DNA of 20,648 nucleotides from a virus (taxonomy: Duplodnaviria; Heunggongvirae; Uroviricota; Caudoviricetes): IMG/VR virus record IMGVR_UViG_2778261382_000002. One strand, written 5' to 3'. Positions within the stretch are counted from its first letter, which is position 1, and the number at the start of each line of letters is the position of its first letter. The notes under the pieces were generated by a model, which worked only from the letters and a program-made list of their open reading frames with translations, was not told the DNA's origin and did not search any database. The position numbers and the translations under genes were made by a program. Shown here in pieces: positions 1-20,648 of the stretch.

Positions 1-549
1 ATGCAATTTAATATCCCTACGTTGCTTACACTGTTCCGTGTCATCCTTATCCCATTCTTTGTATTGGTCTTTTATTTGCCTGTCACCTGGTCGCCGTTTG
101 CCGCCGCGCTCATTTTCTGCGTCGCGGCGGTGACTGACTGGTTCGATGGTTTTCTGGCACGCCGCTGGAATCAGAGTACCCGGTTTGGTGCTTTCCTTGA
201 CCCTGTCGCAGATAAAGTTCTCGTGGCTATCGCCATGGTGCTGGTAACCGAGCATTACCACAGCTGGTGGGTGACCTTACCGGCAGCAACGATGATCGCC
301 CGTGAAATTATTATTTCTGCGCTACGCGAATGGATGGCGGAGTTGGGTAAACGCAGTAGCGTGGCTGTCTCCTGGATTGGGAAAGTGAAAACCACTGCCC
401 AGATGGTGGCGTTAGCCTGGCTGCTGTGGCGTCCGAACATTTGGGTTGAGTACGCCGGTATTGCACTTTTCTTTGTGGCTGCGGTACTGACTCTGTGGTC
501 AATGTTGCAATATTTGAGCGCTGCGCGTGCAGATTTGCTTGATCAGTGA
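1..549 (+). CDS. pgsA: CDP-diacylglycerol--glycerol-3-phosphate 3-phosphatidyltransferase (phosphatidylglycerophosphate synthase)
   Basis: 182-aa ORF whose translation ([20 protein letters not shown]...[10 protein letters not shown]...FLDPVADK) I recognise as enterobacterial PgsA, with the CDP-alcohol phosphatidyltransferase D-G-x2-A-R...G-x3-D-x3-D motif. The glyW-cysT-leuZ operon directly downstream matches the E. coli locus order. Confidence 0.95.
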
Positions 550-599
550 TCGTTTCGGCGCAATTTTCAGCAAACGATCAAAAGTGGTGAAAAATATCG

Positions 600-627
600 T
601 TGACTCATCGCGCCAGGTAAGTAGAAT
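600..627 (+). promoter_or_regulatory. Sigma70-type promoter of the tRNA operon
   Basis: TTGACT (600-605), 16-bp spacer, TAGAAT (622-627), A/T-rich upstream stretch and a GC-rich discriminator-like stretch downstream, about 75 bp before tRNA-Gly. Sequence inspection only. Confidence 0.45.
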
Positions 628-700
628 GCAACGCATCGAACGGCGGCACTGATTGCCAGACGATAATAAAATCAAGTGATTAACTGATTGCTTGATGAAT

Positions 701-776
<76 letters not shown>

Positions 777-829
777 GTTTAAAAGACATCGGCGGCAGCG
801 GATGTCTGGCTGAAAGGCCTGAAGAATTT

Positions 830-903
830 GGCGCGTTAACAAAGCGGTTATGTAGCGGATTGCAAATCCGTCTAGTCCGGTTCGACTCCGGAACGCGCCT
901 CCA
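830..903 (+). tRNA. cysT: tRNA-Cys (anticodon GCA)
   Basis: 74-nt sequence GGCGCGTTAACAAAGCGGTTATGTAGCGGATTGCAAATCCGTCTAGTCCGGTTCGACTCCGGAACGCGCCTCCA, matching the E. coli tRNA-Cys as I recall it; anticodon loop TTGCAAA. Confidence 0.95.
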
Positions 904-915
904 CTTTCTTCCCGA

Positions 916-1002
916 GCCCGGATGGTGGAATCGGTAGACACAAGGGATTTAAAATCCCTCGGCGTTCGCGCTGTGCGGGTTCAAGTCCCGCTCCGGGTAC
1001 CA
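916..1002 (+). tRNA. leuZ: tRNA-Leu (anticodon TAA), long variable arm
   Basis: 87-nt class II tRNA GCCCGGATGGTGGAATCGGTAGACACAAGGGATTTAAAATCCC...GGGTACCA with TAA anticodon and extended variable arm. Confidence 0.95.
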
Positions 1003-1045
1003 TGGGAAAGATAAGAATAAAATCAAAGCAATAAGCAGTGTCGTG

Positions 1046-1069
1046 AAACCACCTTCGGGTGGTTTTTTT
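1046..1069 (+). terminator. Rho-independent terminator of the tRNA operon
   Basis: Perfect 8-bp stem AAACCACC/GGTGGTTT with TTCG tetraloop, followed by a T7 run. Confidence 0.8.
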
Positions 1070-1161
1070 GTATCTTCTTTTTCATTTCCGAAGATGCGTC
1101 CGAAGATGATTTTTCTCTGGACGCATCATCATTCATTTTCTCTGGCCACCAACTACGGGCA

Positions 1162-1416
1162 CTACTTTAACTTTTCGGTCATATGCTGCTGTCTGTCGTG
1201 GGTTCTTATGCCCGGAAATTGCTTGCTTCTCTTCCAGGCTGCCTTAGGCGTAATCAGTTCTGGTGGGGGGAATGCCGATTTCTCCCGCGTGACCTTAATG
1301 TTTTCTGGCAGGTGTAGCCCAAGTTCGCAGCGGCTCCGTGCTTCAATAATGCCATTGGTACCATCGGCAAGTACCAGGTGAACCGCGTCACCACGCTTTA
1401 ATGTGAGTTTAAGCAT
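1162..1416 (-). CDS. Hypothetical protein (84 aa), translationally coupled to the upstream recombinase-like remnant
   Basis: Its ATG (1416-1414 on the - strand) overlaps the TAA stop of the upstream - strand ORF (TAATG). No family recognised. The overlapping + strand ORF 1043-1381 looks non-protein-like. Confidence 0.35.
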   Translation of the reverse strand: MLKLTLKRGDAVHLVLADGTNGIIEARSRCELGLHLPENIKVTREKSAFPPPELITPKAAWKRSKQFPGIRTHDRQQHMTEKLK

Positions 1417-2172
1417 TAGCGTACCCTCAGCGAACGTTCGCCGCGTTCCAGATGTGCGCCTGGTACCGGGTTAAGTAATTCGGCAGGTGGTGTTTCTCCA
1501 CGCGCCATTATTTCTGCGGCAACCGCCTCCGCAGATTCAATCACTTCTTTAATGGCTCGCTTGTTTGGTGTAATAACCGTTTCTACTTCAACAAGTGACA
1601 CGCCTTCATACTCGTCCGGGATCTTATCTTTGCTATCGATAATTACCCGGATAGCCCCCTGTGCATCAGTAAATGTGTTTTTAGCAGTTTTCAATTTACG
1701 ATGAATATTCTTTATCGCCTTTGGCTTCTGCTGCTTTTCGGTGTACATCCACTTCGCGGGCGATGAGGCCAAATACCTTGTTTACTTCGTTGGTGGTTAC
1801 CGCGGCGGCCAGCGTATTGGCAACGTTGATCAGCTTCTCATCCAGTTCCTTACGAAGACGGGTAGCATCTTCCGCATTCTCGCTGGCATTCTTGATATCA
1901 AACTCAGCTTTATTCCTCTGGCGGTATTCCGGATTGTCGTACAGGCCCATGAAAATATCGGCGCTGAATCCGAGAGGGGATAGCGCTTTCTTAACAGCAT
2001 CCGTCCAGGATTTCTTCGGCGCTTCGCCGTCGCTTGTTGGTCCATGTCTAGTATCGTAGATGTACGGAGTGCAACCGTAAGCCGCAGACTCGCCGCGCAC
2101 CCCATTCAATATGTACCAGACTCTCACTTTCATGGTGTGGTGCATTTCACATAGGTACAGCGTGGCTGAGAT
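1416..2172 (-). pseudogene. Rad52/Sak-like single-strand annealing recombinase, N-terminally truncated and frameshifted
   Basis: ORF 1696-2145 (-) contains KKSWTDAVKKALSPLGFSADIFMGLYD, which resembles the Rad52-family signature (K-E-A-V-T-D-x-L-K-R-A-L...F-G...L-D-K as I recall it). Only about 45 residues precede this motif and an in-frame stop lies at 2173-2175, so the N-terminal half of the domain is missing. The C-terminal part continues in another frame (ORF 1416-1772), overlapping by 77 nt. Confidence 0.5.
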
Positions 2173-2587
2173 TCAGTTAGTAATTCGTTGGGTTATTGCG
2201 ACATGGCGCCGTCGTAGCGGAAGCGTTCCGAAACCTGCGAACATTTGCCGCGTAAACCGGTTTGACGGATACCTGGCTGACGCTGAGACGTGGGCCACTG
2301 CTGAGGCTGCCGTTGACCCTGCTGAAGTTGTGAAGGGCTACAACGAGATTCTGGGCGACCTGCTACCTATAGCTGAAATTGATACTGACCGCCGTCGGGC
2401 AATCCTGCGCCTGCTGGCACATATGCGCACGCAAACTCTTGGCGCATTTATCGGCTACTTCGAAAAATTCCGCGATAACGCCCCAGACTTCTATTTCGGC
2501 GGCGAATATCGCACCGGCTGGCGGGCAGGGTTTGATTACCTGATGAAGCCAGAAACACTGCGTAAAACCAGGGAAGGGGCATTATGA
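2111..2587 (+). CDS. Phage replication initiation protein, C-terminal fragment (probably N-terminally truncated), coupled to the helicase gene
   Basis: The C-terminal roughly 100 aa (AEVVKGYNEILGDLLPIAEIDTDRRRAILRLLAHMRTQ...FGGEYRTGWRAGFDYLM) resemble the conserved C-terminal domain of phage O-like replication proteins that partner DnaB-type helicases. The first roughly 55 codons are W/C/R-rich and look non-coding. Stop overlaps the helicase start (ATGA at 2584-2587). Confidence 0.4.
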   Translation: MYQTLTFMVWCISHRYSVAEIQLVIRWVIATWRRRSGSVPKPANICRVNRFDGYLADAETWATAEAAVDPAEVVKGYNEILGDLLPIAEIDTDRRRAILRLLAHMRTQTLGAFIGYFEKFRDNAPDFYFGGEYRTGWRAGFDYLMKPETLRKTREGAL

Positions 2588-3975
2588 ATCCAGAAGAACT
2601 GGAAGCGATCGTTCTCGCTGGTCTGATTAACGGTGGCGCGACGCCTGACGCGTTTGATGTGATTGCCACTACTCCGGAGGAAGCCTTCAGCATCGTGTTT
2701 CACCGTCGCGCTTTCAGCGAAATCAAAAAGCAGGCACTGGCGAACGGCATGATCGACATGTTGTTTATCAGCGAAGCGCTGGGCGGTTCCAGCCTTGCGG
2801 ATCTGTCTCAAATATCCCGGATCCCGGCAACGGTACCGAATCTGAAAGGCTATGCCGGGAAAATGGTGCGGGCATGGCGGAGCCGCAAAATGGCGGCATT
2901 GTTGCAATCTGGCGCGGATGGTATCCGTAACGCTGTAAACCAGAGTCAGCGTGATGAGGTTATTGAATCTCATGTTGCTCAGGTGCTGGATATGAGCGCC
3001 GCTACCGGCACAGTCCAGCCGGTACACATCAAAGAGCTGTTACCGCTCTACATTGACACCGTTGATAAACGGATGTCTGGCGACGCGCAGGAAATGATGC
3101 TGAAAACCGGAGTCGAGGATCTGGATGTCGCCCTGGGCGGTATCAACATGACCGACCTTGTTGTGGTTGCCGGTCGTCCAGGCATGGGGAAAACGGAATT
3201 TACCCTGAAGATTATCGATGGCGTTACCGCAGATGGCGGCGGCGCACTGTTTTTCAGCATGGAAATGGGCGCTCAGCAGATTGTTGAACGTACCGTTGCC
3301 GGGGCTGGGAATATGTCCACGTCGCGTCTGCGTAATCCAAAAGAAATGGACGATGAGGATTTGACCAGATTAACCGCCGCGCTTGCAATCATGCAGGATC
3401 GCGATATCTGGATTGTTGATGCCACTGATTTGACGATTGAGCAGATCCGCGCCATTGCAGAGACTCATAAACGCCGTTATCCGCACCTGAAGTTGATTGG
3501 TGTTGATTACATGGGCCTGATCAAAAAACCGAAGGCCGAGCGCCACGATCTCGCTGTCGGGCATATCTCCCGCAACATGAAGACTATGGCCATGCGTCTG
3601 CATACCCCTGTTTTTGCTCTTAGCCAGCTTTCCCGCCAGGTGGATTCTCGACCTGCTGGCCAGCGTCGCCCGGTGATGTCGGACCTGCGCGATTCCGGCA
3701 GTGTTGAGCAGGACGCTGACAGCATTTTGTTTTTGTACCGCGATGAAGTTTACACACCTGATTCACCTGCAAAGGGTATCGCCGAGGTGATTATCGGTAA
3801 AAACCGTTCTGGCGGGGCAGGTGAAATTATTTATCAGGAATTCCGGAATGGGCATTTCCTGCCAGTTGATCAACACGTAGCACGCGAAAAATTACGCATC
3901 CAGAAGGAGGCAGAGCAACCGAGAAAACGTGAAAAACGGTATTCAAACAAAAACTTTAATACGGACCCATTTTAA
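2584..3975 (+). CDS. Replicative DNA helicase, DnaB family (phage-encoded)
   Basis: 463 aa with Walker A GRPGMGKT, DnaB-like N-terminal domain and C-terminal RecA-like core motifs (FFSMEM, LSQLSR, SDLRDSGSVEQDAD). Size and motif spacing are typical of DnaB. Confidence 0.9.
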   Translation: MNPEELEAIVLAGLINGGATPDAFDVIATTPEEAFSIVFHRRAFSEIKKQALANGMIDMLFISEALGGSSLADLSQISRIPATVPNLKGYAGKMVRAWRSRKMAALLQSGADGIRNAVNQSQRDEVIESHVAQVLDMSAATGTVQPVHIKELLPLYIDTVDKRMSGDAQEMMLKTGVEDLDVALGGINMTDLVVVAGRPGMGKTEFTLKIIDGVTADGGGALFFSMEMGAQQIVERTVAGAGNMSTSRLRNPKEMDDEDLTRLTAALAIMQDRDIWIVDATDLTIEQIRAIAETHKRRYPHLKLIGVDYMGLIKKPKAERHDLAVGHISRNMKTMAMRLHTPVFALSQLSRQVDSRPAGQRRPVMSDLRDSGSVEQDADSILFLYRDEVYTPDSPAKGIAEVIIGKNRSGGAGEIIYQEFRNGHFLPVDQHVAREKLRIQKEAEQPRKREKRYSNKNFNTDPF

Positions 3976-4013
3976 CCACGCATGACCAGCGTGAAATAAC
4001 CGAGGAAAGACCA

Positions 4014-5191: not shown

Positions 5192-5304
5192 GTGAGTTGA
5201 AAATACGTCGCAAGGCAATAGCACACGTTAAAAATCCATTACCAGTGCCCGCCGAATGCCATTTTTGTGGTGGGAATGTACGGATTGGTACGTATGTATG
5301 GTGA
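5188..5304 (+). CDS. Small hypothetical protein (38 aa) with one CxxC motif
   Basis: Not in the supplied ORF track (below 60 aa). ATG at 5188 overlaps the upstream stop (ATGA) and is preceded by GGGAGG 4 nt upstream. Product MSELKIRRKAIAHVKNPLPVPAECHFCGGNVRIGTYVW. Confidence 0.3.
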   Translation: MSELKIRRKAIAHVKNPLPVPAECHFCGGNVRIGTYVW

Positions 5305-5378
5305 TTGCGGAGTGACGTAAAACGAATCGTTGTGGGTGTAATATCGTCAATATCATTGGTTTCCCGGAGGGAAAGGAC

Positions 5379-5528
5379 ATGTTTGGCGATAAACTGGAGT
5401 TACCACGGAACGGGCGGATAGTGCTCTATATTTCAGATTACAAAGTAACCAGGGCTGAGGTGTTGGAACCGGAAAAACATCTGGTCACGTTACCGGACAT
5501 TATTGAGTTGTATAAGCGGGTCGGATAA
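5379..5528 (+). CDS. Small hypothetical protein (49 aa)
   Basis: Not in the supplied ORF track. Strong SD (GGAGGGAAAGGA) immediately upstream of ATG 5379. Product MFGDKLELPRNGRIVLYISDYKVTRAEVLEPEKHLVTLPDIIELYKRVG. Could alternatively be a remnant of a deleted upstream gene. Confidence 0.3.
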   Translation: MFGDKLELPRNGRIVLYISDYKVTRAEVLEPEKHLVTLPDIIELYKRVG

Positions 5529-5546
5529 CGGCTGGGGAGGTAACTG

Positions 5547-9138: not shown

Positions 9139-9819
9139 GTGGCCGATTTACGTAGTAACGCGCAGATGTTCGATATCGATGTTTCGGCGCTGGAGCAGCT
9201 CAGAGTCGAAATCAGCGCGACGCAACATCAAATGTTAATGGTATACAACAGGGCGCTGAACCGAACTGCAAAACATATGCACCGAATTTCAGCAGGAATG
9301 ATTTTGACTGCACTGGCAGCTAAAAATCATAAGGCCGTAGATAAACGAATCAAGCCGTTCATTAAGCGCCGTAATTTTACAAAAGAAGGGGCAGGAGACC
9401 TGAGCAGCGCCAAGCTCTGGTACGGTCTGAATGATTTCCGGGTATCTGAGCTAAAGGGGCGATTACAAAATCCACGGAGGCAAAAACAGCCTCGCGATCT
9501 TGAGACCGGCCTGTTTTTGAAAACCAAAAAAGGCGCTAGAGGGGCAACTTTTACACCCAAAAGTGCAGGGCTGGCGATGATGAGTTGGCCCGATTCATTC
9601 GTAGCGAAACGCTACGGTGCGAAAAGTGTCTGGATTCGACTGGATCGCGGAGGAATCGAAGAGGCTCGCGTACCTGTGCACGACGCGCTGGAGGATGCTA
9701 TCGATGATTATATTTTTGAAAACATTGGCCCTGTTTTTATGGGCTTTTTTGAGAAAGATTTGCGCGGTCGCGTGAAAGGTAATGTCCACGTAGACCCAAA
9801 AACAGGTAAACGATTATGA
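9139..9819 (+). CDS. Putative head-tail connector or tail completion protein (position of lambda Z / P2 R-S)
   Basis: 226 aa, GTG start preceded by strong SD AAGGGGG; basic protein between head-completion and baseplate genes. Function inferred from position only. Confidence 0.4.
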   Translation: MADLRSNAQMFDIDVSALEQLRVEISATQHQMLMVYNRALNRTAKHMHRISAGMILTALAAKNHKAVDKRIKPFIKRRNFTKEGAGDLSSAKLWYGLNDFRVSELKGRLQNPRRQKQPRDLETGLFLKTKKGARGATFTPKSAGLAMMSWPDSFVAKRYGAKSVWIRLDRGGIEEARVPVHDALEDAIDDYIFENIGPVFMGFFEKDLRGRVKGNVHVDPKTGKRL

Positions 9820-17171: not shown

Positions 17172-18789
17172 AACGCAGGTTGTATTCGGTGGGCGAATAA
17201 ACCCGTCGTTTCGTCGCGGTACAACAGAACTCAATGATGCGATTCGGCAGACGTCGTCTACTGTCGGGAAATTAACGAAAAGTCAGGATAAATTAAAAGA
17301 CAAAATCGCAGCAATGAAACTGGCAGGTAAAGACGTTTCTGATTTATCTGCTCAGTATCAAAAGCTGGACCGTCGGATAAAAGCGACAACGCAGGACCAG
17401 GAGGCGCTGAATACTCAACTTGCTAAAAAACAGCAGCTGGAGAAGTGGACGGGTCGCGCAAAAGGAGCTGCAAAATGGGGCGGACGAGCCGCCGCAGGTG
17501 CGGTGAGGGCTACGGGGCGGGGTATCAAATGGGGGACACTTGGCGCGGCAGGGCTCATTGGCGGTGCTGCAGCTGGTGCGCTGGCAATGAATGCAGAGAC
17601 GTCAGAAAAACTCGGTCTGGCGAAGTCCTACGGCGTTGGCGTCGAAAAATACGCTGCGTGGGAAAATATTGGTAAAGCCGCGGGCCTGAACGGCGAAAAT
17701 ATCGGGGATTTGTCTGAAGAACTTACAAATAAAATCGGCGAAATCGGAAACGAAAAAAGCCTGAATCCCATGTTATTTCAAATTGGCCTGACGAAAAAAC
17801 GAATGGCTGGCTGGGATCGGGAAAAACAGTTTAATGAGGTTATGCGTCGCATCTCTGAAATGAAAGATGAGAAGCAAGCGGCGAGCCTCGCTGACCAGCT
17901 CATGGGGGGCGAGGCTAATAAGATCATGACGTATATGAAGGCGACGGGTAAAAGCTGGGAACAGACAATGTCTGACGCGCAAAAGTCGAATTTGTTAACA
18001 AAAGAGGGTGCGGAAGGGGCGGCGCGTGCGCATGTATCAGTGACAAATCTGTGGGGCTCTATTACGTCGGGACTTGCAGATACACTCGGTAAAATCGGGG
18101 GGGAACTCGCGCCGACGTTTGACTCAGTACGTGAAACATTTACATCCTGGTTTAAGGATAATCAGGGTGGTTTTGTCAGCACAATTACTGAGTGGGTAAA
18201 ACCAGAAAATATGAAAAAAATGTGGGATGGCATCGTCAATTTTGGAGAAGGTTGCGTCAAATTCGGGAAGATTATATGGGCTGTCGTAAAGAAACTGGAG
18301 TGGCTTATTCCGGATGAAAAATCAGATGAAGAACAGAAAACTTATAATGACGAATATAATCGGGCATATCAAGAGTTTATGGATTCGGGAGGTAAATATT
18401 CACCGAACGCTGGATTGACTGCTGATAATATTGCGAAGGCAAAAGCCGAAGAGGCTGTCGAAAATATGCGGCATCCAGAACGGCAAGAACAGGCAAAATC
18501 TCAGGCAGAATCAATGCTCGCGTTTGTTAATCCATTATCCGGGATGGTAAATAAAAATACCGCGCCTGCAGCACTGGATTCGTCGACGTTAAATATTGAT
18601 ACGTTGAAGCAGGCAGTCTCGACACCTGCGCCGGAGCAAAACAATAAAATCGAAATCAATATTGTCGGTGCGACAGATCCGCAGTCAATACAACAATCTG
18701 CAGCGTCGGGGGTGCTCGATGGACTGAGACAGGCTGCGAGTTCGTACAATCGTGGCGCGATGTTTGATAAACCAGCGGCGGCGGGGTGA
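17149..18789 (+). CDS. Tail tape measure protein (P2 gpT-like), short form
   Basis: 546 aa, coiled-coil-like N-terminal region, Gly/Ala-rich hydrophobic segment (GTLGAAGLIGGAAAGALA), located after the E/E' chaperone genes. Confidence 0.85.
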   Translation: MAISQNFKTQVVFGGRINPSFRRGTTELNDAIRQTSSTVGKLTKSQDKLKDKIAAMKLAGKDVSDLSAQYQKLDRRIKATTQDQEALNTQLAKKQQLEKWTGRAKGAAKWGGRAAAGAVRATGRGIKWGTLGAAGLIGGAAAGALAMNAETSEKLGLAKSYGVGVEKYAAWENIGKAAGLNGENIGDLSEELTNKIGEIGNEKSLNPMLFQIGLTKKRMAGWDREKQFNEVMRRISEMKDEKQAASLADQLMGGEANKIMTYMKATGKSWEQTMSDAQKSNLLTKEGAEGAARAHVSVTNLWGSITSGLADTLGKIGGELAPTFDSVRETFTSWFKDNQGGFVSTITEWVKPENMKKMWDGIVNFGEGCVKFGKIIWAVVKKLEWLIPDEKSDEEQKTYNDEYNRAYQEFMDSGGKYSPNAGLTADNIAKAKAEEAVENMRHPERQEQAKSQAESMLAFVNPLSGMVNKNTAPAALDSSTLNIDTLKQAVSTPAPEQNNKIEINIVGATDPQSIQQSAASGVLDGLRQAASSYNRGAMFDKPAAAG

Positions 18790-18791
18790 CA

Positions 18792-19214
18792 ATGAGTGAT
18801 GCAATAAACGGTGCTGAGGATATCATGCTCGGCCTGGGTGATTTCATTTTTGCTATATCAACAGTAGCGTACAACAAACTGCAACGTAGTGACGCCTGGC
18901 GCTGGGCTCAGCAAACACGATTCGGGAAAAACGACGCGTTGCAGATAACCGGACGACCGAACCCCACAATTACTATCGATGGAAAGATAAACGCTTTATT
19001 TCTTGACGGGTGCGGCGTCGGCCTGTTGACAGATTTGCGAGCGCTCGGGAACACGGGAGAACCCCAGCAGCTAGTGCTGGGGACCGGGGAGGTGAAAGGG
19101 TACTGGGTGCTGCGAGAACTAACTGAAACGCAAAACAGCTTTTTGATGGGCGGAACACCTAAATCGCAGGACTTTTCACTCACGCTCGAATATTATGGAG
19201 CTTCGCTAGATTAA
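18792..19214 (+). CDS. Tail protein, P2 gpU-like
   Basis: LGLGDFIF...ITIDGKINALF...GYWVLRELTETQNSFLMGG...FSLTLEYYG matches the gpU family pattern. ATG 18792 has GGGG 5 nt upstream; the track ORF starts at GTG 18786, overlapping the tape-measure stop. Confidence 0.8.
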   Translation: MSDAINGAEDIMLGLGDFIFAISTVAYNKLQRSDAWRWAQQTRFGKNDALQITGRPNPTITIDGKINALFLDGCGVGLLTDLRALGNTGEPQQLVLGTGEVKGYWVLRELTETQNSFLMGGTPKSQDFSLTLEYYGASLD

Positions 19215-19388
19215 TACAAAATCAAGCGCTACCAGAGCACTTAACAAGTATAAAAATAATAAAAAAAACTACGAACATAAATGTAAAACAACCTGATGGT
19301 ATTTTTTTTTGACGCCGAAATACTAATACCTCTCCGACTACTAAAATTAATTCTCATTATGAAATCCTTTTAATTAATGGGGCCCCAA

Positions 19389-19601
19389 ATGATTACATAC
19401 ACTACACGGGACGGTGACCGTCTCGATCAGATCTGCCTTGCGGTCTACGGGAGAGCGTCAAAAACGACAGAGACTGTTTTATATCAGGTTTCGAATTACG
19501 GCGTAACGGATATGTGTGCCGTGTTTCGTGCTGGAGAAAAAATTGTTTTACCAGATATCGAACCAGAGCCGGTTAAAAAAGAAACGCAATTATGGGATTG
19601 A
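19389..19601 (+). CDS. Tail protein X, P2 gpX-like
   Basis: MITYTTRDGDRLDQICLAVYGRASKTTETVL parallels P2 gpX (MKTFALQGDTLDAICVRYYGRTEGVVETVL). Start at 19389 chosen by alignment and a weak SD; the track ORF begins at 19377. Confidence 0.82.
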   Translation: MITYTTRDGDRLDQICLAVYGRASKTTETVLYQVSNYGVTDMCAVFRAGEKIVLPDIEPEPVKKETQLWD

Positions 19602-19604
19602 TGA

Positions 19605-20648
19605 ATGAGTGATTACGTAAATACTGGCGTGGAGGCGTGGAAACCTAATTTTTATATATCTGCTGATAATAAAAACATCACGGATAAAATAAGAAAAGGT
19701 TTGATCAATATCACGCTGACAGATTACGGCGGCTCCAGTAAACAGACAGACGAACTCCGCGTAGCAATAGTTTCTGAAACTCTGAAAATTCCGGCCCGCG
19801 GAGTAAAAATCAGTATTGGGCTCGGTTTCGGTAATCAGATAATTGATAAAGGGATATACATCGTTGACGGTGCTAGCAGTGGCGGTGAACCCCGGGTAGT
19901 TGATTTCACAGCAAAAGCGGCTCCGATGAACGCAGCAAAAGGATCTCCGACAGTTCAGAGCAAAAAGACTCGTTCCTGGAGCGACGTCACTGTCAGCGAT
20001 ATCGTTGCGACAATAGCGAGCGATAATGGGCTAAAACCACGCGTATCAAAGCGGTTTGCAGACAATGTTATCACGCAACTCGATCAGGTCGGCGAGTCAG
20101 ATATGCACCTGATGTCGCGGCTCGCAACGAGATTCGATGCGGTGAGTAAACCCGCGGGCGGGTACTGGATATTCCTGCCGCGCGGCGCGGGCGAATCTGT
20201 TAGCGGTGCTCCGCTCCAGCACTACACGCTAACTCGTCGTGATAACTCCAGCTGGGGCTATTCGAGAAATGGACAAAGTGGCGATAGTGGTAGCGGTGGC
20301 GAAAATCCGGAACCGACGTATCTGATTAAATATCACGACACAGCAACTGGGCAGATCAAAGAATTGCGGACAGGTAGTGGCGGCGATCCTGTCATTGAAT
20401 GGCCGGCAGTTGAGCCGTCGCTCGACGCAGCGAAAGAAGCTGCACCAGGGCTCAAGGGCGGTGCAGCTAAAAAAGAGTTCTCTATGACGTACACGACGCC
20501 AGCGACGCTCGATTTAGTGTCGCTGACAGCAGAATGCAAAGTCACAACTCAAGGATTCGGGACCGAGGAGGACCGGGACTGGACTATCAACACACTGAGT
20601 CTGACGCTCGCTGAAAACGGTTTTTCGGTTCGGCTGTCTCTGGAGTAA
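19605..20648 (+). CDS. Tail protein D, P2 gpD-like
   Basis: 347 aa at the end of the tail operon, following U and X as in phiCTX/R-pyocin clusters; Gly/Ser-rich linker (SGDSGSGGENPEP). Assignment rests mainly on position, size and family-typical composition. Confidence 0.75.
   Translation: MSDYVNTGVEAWKPNFYISADNKNITDKIRKGLINITLTDYGGSSKQTDELRVAIVSETLKIPARGVKISIGLGFGNQIIDKGIYIVDGASSGGEPRVVDFTAKAAPMNAAKGSPTVQSKKTRSWSDVTVSDIVATIASDNGLKPRVSKRFADNVITQLDQVGESDMHLMSRLATRFDAVSKPAGGYWIFLPRGAGESVSGAPLQHYTLTRRDNSSWGYSRNGQSGDSGSGGENPEPTYLIKYHDTATGQIKELRTGSGGDPVIEWPAVEPSLDAAKEAAPGLKGGAAKKEFSMTYTTPATLDLVSLTAECKVTTQGFGTEEDRDWTINTLSLTLAENGFSVRLSLE

Follow-up and report, generated by a model that had tools for sequence, protein, structure and literature searches.

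A low-GC island between tail genes U and X of a prophage, very probably the leftover of a deleted reverse-strand cargo cassette

Why should a closely packed tail operon hold, between two small tail genes, an A+T-rich island with two long homopolymers? The island lies in a viral sequence of 20,648 nucleotides (IMG/VR record IMGVR_UViG_2778261382_000002), the whole of which was analyzed and is referred to here as the window. The window contains the host gene pgsA and tRNA genes for Gly, Cys, and Leu (positions 701-1002), followed by a prophage with genes for capsid E, tail fibre, sheath, tube, chaperone, tape measure, gpU, X, and D. Along the plus-strand gene chain, 20 of the 25 junctions overlap or have gaps of 40 nucleotides or less, in rough agreement with the tight packing reported in a preliminary description of this DNA. 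The U-X gap ranks second in length among these 25 junctions, the largest being 355 bp at 5192-5546. The features at and beside the gap are as follows.

18786-19214, plus strand: gpU tail gene (142 aa), left border of the slot (ORF; PF06995, E 3.1e-31; phrog_76, tail protein)
19215-19388, no strand assigned: A+T-rich island, very probably what a deletion of about 1.1 kb left of a moron cassette on the reverse strand (GC content; blastn)
19379-19386, no strand assigned: palindrome GGGGCCCC, whose GGGG is a Shine-Dalgarno (SD)-like element six nucleotides before the X start (sequence)
19389-19601, plus strand: tail protein X (70 aa), right border of the slot (PF05489, E 1.9e-15; PGAP start in identical copies)
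19605-20648, plus strand: gpD-like baseplate hub / late control D gene (phrog_52, E 2.7e-94; PF05954 weak)

The gpU ORF ends with a TAA stop codon at 19212-19214. Tail protein X has two in-frame ATG codons, at 19377 and 19389. The second is used as the start by all homologues and by the PGAP/RefSeq annotation of identical copies, and the gap is therefore 19215-19388, or 174 bp in length. The first ATG lacks an SD sequence, as had been stated for it, and the real start has GGGG six nucleotides upstream. The GC content of the gap is 0.305 compared with 0.493 for the whole window, and the lowest-GC stretch of 174 bp in the window begins at 19205 (GC 0.276). The A8 tract (19261-19268) and the T9 tract (19302-19310) are the sole homopolymers of at least eight bases in the 20.6 kb. 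The approximate length of 170 bp, the A+T richness, and the tracts given in the preliminary description were thus confirmed, the tract positions exactly. In 100,000 mononucleotide shuffles of the gap, the probability of an A run of at least 8 was 0.076, that of a T run of at least 9 was 0.0006, and that of both was 4e-5.

The gap had also been called non-coding. That label holds only in the sense that the gap appears to carry a truncated and frameshifted remnant; it missed a minus-strand gene whose Lys-Lys and Phe-Phe codons persist as relics in the two tracts. The minus-strand features of the island are listed below.

19365-19369, minus strand: SD sequence AAGGA, 7 nucleotides before the ATG, apparently inherited from gene 1 of the cassette (sequence)
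19231-19357, minus strand: stump of cassette gene 1, with the start codon at 19357-19355 and codons 1 to 42/43 (P0004 homology; codon alignment)
19241-19357, minus strand: ORF open in the window, 38 aa, MRINFSSRRGISISASKKNTIRLFYIYVRSFFYYFYTC, frameshifted after Lys18
19302-19310, minus-strand codons: T9 tract, length-variable, relic of TCA-AAA-AAA-ATA (Ser-Lys-Lys-Ile) plus one extra base
19261-19268, minus-strand codons: A8 tract, relic of GTT-TTT-TTT-ATT (Val-Phe-Phe-Ile) of the signal-anchor (codon alignment)
19215-19230, no strand assigned: putative deletion junction of about 16 nucleotides, aligning to nothing in the Salmonella cassette

The query for homology was the minus-strand ORF in its T8 form, which has 44 codons and translates as MRINFSSRRGISISASKKIPSGCFTFMFVVFFIIFILVKCSGSA. 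A phmmer search of 1.84 billion representatives matched it to residues 1-43 of P0004, a 166-aa hypothetical protein of Salmonella enterica (E 1.1e-6). BLASTP aligned the two without gaps at 27 of 43 identical residues (E 8e-16). P0024, from S. enterica subsp. salamae, is an 88% relative of P0004. A word-indexed protein search with the 44-aa ORF returned the ORF itself and two frameshift variants and nothing else. The 44-, 38-, and 25-aa ORFs of the island matched no family in Pfam, PHROGs, NCBIfam, or PADLOC. A match of an island ORF to TcaA was rejected as noise (E 0.02, 13.7 bits against a cutoff of 550).

A look-up of contigs encoding P0004 or P0024 yielded five Salmonella loci (L040, L041, and L043-L045). 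In each of these, the P0004/P0024 gene (gene 1) lies between Phage_tail_X and Phage_P2_GpU, antisense to the tail genes, and starts 33 nucleotides from the X start. Each locus also has a second gene following the first (gene 2), an ORFan (P0012/P0013) of 220-236 aa whose stop codon overlaps that of U. By protein match, a further viral contig, L042, encodes a 99% identical protein. The Salmonella cassette is 1262 bp long with a GC content of 0.33, and the flanking genes in L040 have values of 0.49 (U), 0.44 (X), and 0.54 (D). Searches of Pfam, PHROGs, and PADLOC placed the Salmonella pair in no family. For P0004, an AlphaFold model built on a two-sequence alignment has a pLDDT of 36 and is unusable.

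The island and the cassette are collinear. Blastn aligned the window from X through the island (19232-19653) with L040 4125-3701 (68%, E 2e-33), and on the U side aligned 18897-19218 with L040 5547-5226 (E 7e-27). Since the two alignments end at L040 4125 and 5226, L040 4126-5225 has no counterpart in the window. A codon-by-codon DNA alignment of the island with Salmonella gene 1 also covers the leader and the SD, where the homologous Salmonella position reads AAGGG or AAAGG. At the level of sequence, the homology, the synteny, and the strand are established, and so is the truncation: the match covers part of a gene at the syntenic position (44 vs. 166 codons), and gene 2 is absent. Collinear homology and synteny together therefore make the island a Salmonella-type cassette minus about 1.1 kb. 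The E. coli stump is 63% identical to the Salmonella cassette in amino acids and 68% in nucleotides, and the nucleotide identity equals that of the flanking U and X genes. Because the identity is only that of the tail genes around it, the Salmonella cassette is a cousin rather than the parent. The equal identity fits a long co-residence of cassette and tail module, followed by deletion in the Escherichia lineage.

The island is thus very probably what was left behind when a reverse-strand cargo cassette was deleted, with the tracts being its old codons. Of the interpretations first offered for this gap, the scar of a lost insertion was essentially right, about 1.1 kb having been lost from a two-gene reverse-strand cassette that is still present in Salmonella prophages. 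The proposal of slippage sites also stood, and that of an internal promoter found no support; both are taken up below. Truncation is far more parsimonious than extension because the 44-aa product lacks a mature domain, and because gene 1, gene 2, and the island share a foreign composition. The T and A runs are ordinary codons, which makes the island an ordinary gene remnant and not a control element.

The course of events may be pictured as follows. The gpU/X junction in P2/Mu-like tail modules would be a moron slot for A+T-rich genes on the strand opposite the tail operon. The ancestor of the E. coli element would have held a two-gene cassette in this slot: gene 1, whose product of about 166 aa began with a signal-anchor, and gene 2, whose product of about 220-236 aa was likewise hydrophobic at its N-terminus. 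One fairly recent event would then have deleted about 1.1 kb, taking gene 1 from about codon 43 on and the entire gene 2. Of gene 1, the 5' leader, the SD, and codons 1 to 42/43 would have remained, and the low GC of the island would be the foreign composition of the cassette. The flanks would later have been overwritten by recombination with sister prophages. In the window, a change from T8 to T9 would have turned the 44-codon ORF into one of 38 codons without the hydrophobic segment. X and D are presumed to be expressed by read-through from U, via the G-rich SD on the island's right edge. Complete E. coli genomes and phage records yielded no full-length cassette closer than 63% in amino acids and 68% in nucleotides, and we therefore infer the precise ends of the deletion and the immediate ancestor's sequence.

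Several observations run counter to a plain stump: the 16 nucleotides at 19215-19230 align to nothing, the stump ORF is open in most haplotypes with a good SD and exceeds the length expected by chance, and the island has changed much less than its flanking genes.

Of 5426 complete E. coli genomes, 434 carry the island, always between U and X; ST131 genomes are numerous among these 434. It is also present in four phage records. No copy was found on plasmids, and exact-pattern scans of viral and gut metagenome contigs located it solely in the U-X context. Among the 40 RefSeq copies listed, PGAP annotates nothing in the island. The island contains an 11-nucleotide terminal inverted repeat, which is unremarkable in 30% GC DNA. 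A mobile element was considered and rejected, as the island has only the U-X context in genomes, viral contigs, and gut metagenomes and never occurs on plasmids.

The slot between U and X can hold other contents. An unrelated insert of 237-245 bp occupies the slot in 18 complete E. coli genomes, E24377A and SE11 among them, as well as in E. whittamii and two viral contigs, with flanks 85-96% identical to those of the window. A gpU scan of genome contigs, aimed at a closer parent of the stump, gave E. whittamii alone. This insert encodes a minus-strand Imm_superinfect protein of 80-86 aa (PF14373, E 5.8e-11; phrog_1039, "immunity to superinfection"). Where the window has the GGGGCCCC palindrome, the imm-type loci carry GAGGCCTC. 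Between loci L003 and L006, the imm gene differs by 11 synonymous and 6 non-synonymous codon changes, a ratio that indicates purifying selection. The Jilinvirus phages ECOO78 and PT1 have a U-X overlap of 1 nucleotide; the annotated U and X also overlap in HM795 and VP882; and in Smp131, U runs directly into D. The imm insert, the U-X overlaps, and the U-D arrangement of Smp131 together identify the gap as a lineage-specific insertion site rather than a conserved spacer, and the variable content of the slot makes it a moron site. No description of the U-X slot was found in the literature.

The island shares its position, its strand logic, and a similarly low GC with the imm gene of the sister lineages, and might be taken for a decayed copy of it. 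The best local alignment between the two scores 9, below the shuffle mean of 11.0, and 495 of 500 shuffles score at least as high. No island ORF matches PF14373, and a specific other homologue (P0004) exists. Decay of an imm gene was rejected on these grounds, and its probability is close to negligible. The island resembles the T4 Imm-like Imm_superinfect genes (PF14373) of the E24377A/SE11-type loci and E. whittamii in slot, antisense orientation, coding for a small membrane protein, and low GC. Unlike them, it shows no sequence relationship to the family, and it is a truncated remnant of a different cassette whereas the imm genes are intact.

Among E. coli lineages, the island is 97.7-99.4% identical (1-3 substitutions), compared with 91-95% for the flanks, where U, X, and D differ by 5-9%. 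The binomial probabilities of this difference are 7e-6 and 2e-3. The invariant block extends from 19161 to 19441. Two allele classes are present on each side, and all four combinations occur, with either cassette type. We attribute the higher conservation of the island to a recent common origin together with recombination of the flanks with sister prophages, although selection would look alike.

The tracts can be compared with the intact gene. Salmonella gene 1 has exactly 8 A on the coding strand at the position of the T tract, and T8 is therefore the ancestral, in-frame length. Of the 434 E. coli copies, 423 are one position off the 174-bp island of the window, consistent with T8. An 8-base T tract is estimated for about 430 of the 434 and was seen in the copies retrieved. 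The 70-mer of the window that bears T9 has an exact match in none of the 434 genomes with the island. The T9 of the window is thus a derived +1 change. It is a disabling mutation, shifting the frame after codon 18 and shortening the ORF from 44 to 38 aa. Whereas the T8-form peptide has a positively charged N-terminus followed by a hydrophobic signal-anchor (a 15-residue core with a Kyte-Doolittle maximum of 3.19), the 38-aa product has lost the hydrophobic segment (maximum 0.88).

T7, T8, and T9 and A7 and A8 were all found among otherwise near-identical copies. The sequences thus show the length polymorphism as well as the ancestral length. T9 is confined to the window, GF43, and the gut-metagenome contig L033, three different haplotypes, and is rare among complete E. 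coli genomes (about 1 of 434). T7 is present in L011, L022, and L025, and is accompanied by a 3-bp deletion in L011, L025, and ETEC1738. A7 is present in P0002, L032, and L030 and shifts the frame to give a 49-aa ORF. Low-coverage or long-read assemblies are the source of some tract variants, which are possibly sequencing errors. That T9 turned up on three backgrounds speaks for real slippage, and the earlier suggestion that the homopolymers are potential slippage sites was borne out. The SD varies as well, with a substitution in L034 and a 1-nucleotide insertion in Ecol_244/L023. These SD changes and the frameshifting T7 and T9 forms of several lineages point to decay of the stump.

Contingency loci with homopolymer tracts are phase-variable loci. 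Like them, the island has mononucleotide runs of 8-9 nucleotides within an ORF, with length variants among near-identical copies, some of which may be errors. Unlike them, its ORF is a truncated remnant, its tracts are inherited Lys-Lys and Phe-Phe codons, and its variants are rare.

These features raise the question of whether the stump is a live small gene, encoding a 44-aa single-pass membrane peptide, perhaps with residual exclusion or toxic activity, and phase-variable through slippage at T8. Changes in the A8 tract would then alter the C-terminus of the peptide, and the copy in the window would be in the OFF phase. Most haplotypes have the ORF intact, with AAGGA-N7-ATG at its start. Its length is unusual for its composition, an ATG ORF of at least 44 codons being uncommon in dinucleotide shuffles (P = 0.012, range 0.012-0.034). 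The core described above is strongly hydrophobic, T7/T8/T9 and A7/A8 variants recur on different haplotypes, and the island is better conserved than its flanks. One phage record annotates the island as a 44-aa minus-strand CDS. The peptide is, however, just the signal-anchor of a 166-aa protein without its mature domain, and it has no stand-alone homologues among 5.8 or 1.84 billion proteins and no family match. The variants L034 and L023 damage the SD, and some of the tract variants that would serve as phase states may be sequencing errors. By our own count, the codon changes in the stump among E. coli haplotypes are 4 non-synonymous and 2 synonymous, a count of six changes in a young island that has little power. 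Inheritance from gene 1 fully explains both the open frame and the SD.

Scans for a promoter of such a gene turned up nothing convincing, the minus strand giving only matches driven by its A+T content. E. coli and Salmonella share, at homologous positions inside X, a weak antisense promoter candidate about 120 nucleotides upstream of gene 1, which coincides with conserved Leu-Tyr codons of X. It is unlikely that T8/A8 copies yield a 44-aa signal-anchor peptide from a prophage-expressed antisense promoter in X, with T7 and T9 switching it off or truncating it and A7 changing its C-terminus. A live gene in general is given the same low probability, and the stump is probably functionless, a gene fragment that would owe its remaining features to the deleted cassette.

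The preliminary description also proposed an internal promoter for X-D. Here the island would be a promoter, or an entry site rich in UP elements, driving X and D independently of the upstream tail genes. The island is A+T-rich with A/T tracts, and it has a TTGACG hexamer at 19309-19314. With a position weight matrix (PWM), the plus strand matched best at 19347-19374 (TTAATT-16-TTTAAT), a score among the top 1% for the window. This match is marginal, A+T-driven, and badly placed: by our own estimate, transcription from TTTAAT would begin in the SD or just beyond it, only a few nucleotides short of the X start codon. A sigma-70 consensus scan (at least 9 of 12 positions) of the plus strand of the gap gave no match, and TTGACG has no -10 partner at 15-19 nucleotides. 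Matches of this kind are expected in 30% GC DNA. The absence of an Ogr-type TGT-N12-ACA site from the gap, which had been noted before, was upheld by a scan of 19100-19450; the only two such sites in the window are at 9233 and 11191. The imm-type sister loci pack U, imm, and X without a spacer, and distant relatives overlap U and X, so the module needs no promoter at this junction. An internal promoter is accordingly regarded as decidedly unlikely, and that part of the preliminary description found no support. As for the nucleoid-protein silencing site that was proposed as well, binding of H-NS by the island is plausible, as by any horizontally acquired DNA with 30% GC.

A further alternative is that the island encodes an RNA, small or antisense, or forms an mRNA structure such as an attenuator or terminator in the tail operon. 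The arms formed by A8 and T9 are complementary over 17 nucleotides (82%), and a weak terminator-like hairpin is present on the minus strand at 19245-19221. This hairpin is formed by the deletion junction and the last stump codons, and has just 3 G-C pairs. The folding z-scores are -0.98 for the plus strand and +0.32 for the minus strand, and show no significant structure. A search of Rfam gave no match at the gathering score, and a permissive search gave only matches with E of at least 1.3. A terminator scan found none on the plus strand of the gap. An RNA element is therefore considered highly improbable. By sequence comparison, the island is not an Imm_superinfect gene, an Ogr-type late promoter, or a known RNA.

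The reading of the island as a cassette remnant can be set beside the morons of temperate phages, which were reportedly defined for HK97/HK022 by Juhala, Hendrix, and colleagues. As with morons, the extra DNA separates genes that in related phages adjoin or overlap, and its composition is distinct (GC 0.30-0.33 for the island and the cassette, 0.44-0.54 for their neighbours). The U-X cargo opposes the late operon, and different cassettes share the site across lineages, with three contents seen. Unlike a moron, the window holds a 5' stump and not a working gene. As to a promoter and terminator of its own, no match of at least 9 of 12 positions was found; the candidates are the weak antisense site in X and the weak minus-strand hairpin. 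The resemblance to the Salmonella pair (P0004/P0024 with P0012/P0013) is closer, the island being collinear with its leader, SD, and codons 1-42/43 in an identical slot and orientation. It differs from that pair in lacking about 1.1 kb, comprising the rest of gene 1 and all of gene 2.

An odd A+T island with long homopolymers in a packed tail operon would thus be a truncated cargo gene and not a regulatory device, and it deserves annotation as a pseudogene remnant. The tract variants are a practical caution for variant calling in ST131. The gpU/X junction appears to have served repeatedly as a moron slot, and at least three states of it are seen: a T4-Imm-like gene, the Salmonella two-gene membrane-protein cassette, and the E. 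coli deletion stump. The Salmonella cassette is a reasonable candidate for phage exclusion. If the stump were live after all, a phase-variable small membrane protein would be present in about 8% of E. coli genomes, including ST131. The U-X junction would then be a dedicated slot for membrane-anchored superinfection-exclusion cargo, with the Salmonella cassette as a new example.

An 8-bp perfect palindrome lies immediately 5' of the gene for tail protein X, both where the U-X junction holds the A+T-rich island and where it holds imm, a gene of the Imm_superinfect family (PF14373). The features of the junction discussed here are as follows, with L003 and L006 being imm-type loci and L040 a Salmonella enterica locus.

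Palindrome just 5' of X: window 19379-19386; L003 about 2151-2158; L006 about 3151-3158.
imm ORF, annotated as 86 aa: L003 1908-2168, minus strand; L006 2908-3168, minus strand; homologue in L015.
Best antisense promoter-like site 5' of the cargo genes, inside X: window 19478-19507, minus strand; L040 about 3850-3880, plus strand.
Uncharacterised two-gene cassette, antisense between X and U: L040 4001-5233, plus strand; also in L043-L045 (S. enterica).

At island-type junctions the palindrome reads GGGGCCCC, and at imm-type junctions it reads GAGGCCTC. The versions differ by one A/G and one T/C exchange, which are placed symmetrically and so leave the palindrome intact. The imm-type palindrome contains GAGG, which can be read as a potential Shine-Dalgarno (SD) sequence for X on one strand, with a spacing of 10 nucleotides, and on the opposite strand as a potential SD sequence for imm, where it is located 6 nucleotides 5' of the ATG of Met7. 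Judged from the sequence, Met7 is probably the true start of imm, giving a protein of 80 rather than 86 aa. The more divergent homologue in L015 opens at the equivalent MEIF...

The antisense promoter-like site occupies a homologous position within X across all three slot types (island, imm, and Salmonella cassette). It reads GTTACG-18-TGaTATAAA in E. coli versus TTATTC-17-TATAGT in Salmonella, and coincides with conserved Leu-Tyr codons of X. In the island of E. coli Ecol_244 (L023), one extra A, at the equivalent of approximately window position 19367, changes the SD sequence of the cassette gene 1 remnant from AAGGA to ATGGA and also yields an in-frame ATG upstream. This extra A may be either a PacBio error or a genuine variant.

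The Salmonella cassette has a GC content of 0.33 and was found in only a few Salmonella lineages. Its first protein is 166 aa in length with an N-terminal signal-anchor, and its second is 220-236 aa with an N-terminal hydrophobic segment. Neither matched a family in Pfam, PHROG, or PADLOC. As cargo, the pair is a candidate for a role in lysogenic conversion or exclusion.

The D gene of the window is intact (19605-20648, 347 aa). Compared with it, the D gene of the related locus L002 (2319-3092) shows a 1-nucleotide gap, and the annotation of ST131 copies gives D as a 'hypothetical protein' of 257 aa. The tail module of the ST131 copies is decaying. In E. coli TUM2367 (L021), X is interrupted by an IS1 copy downstream of the island, a further sign of a defective element. 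Window 18000-18785, the 3' part of a 546-aa gene at the tape-measure position, is hypervariable or mosaic on a local scale, with just 71-84% identity among lineages that share 91-95% in U, X, and D.

Elsewhere, the biggest intergenic gap in the plus-strand gene chain (5192-5546, 355 bp, GC 0.46) lies 5' of an S49 peptidase gene, and the sole ORF within it encodes 49 aa (5379-5528). Within window 1-4000, the prophage adjoins pgsA and tRNA-Gly/Cys/Leu, and a DnaB-like helicase gene (2584-3975) adjoins the head genes. No Pfam match to a terminase or portal family was obtained in the ten window ORFs scanned. Versions of the element of approximately 20 kb are deposited as 'complete' phage genomes; the prophage element of the window is probably defective.
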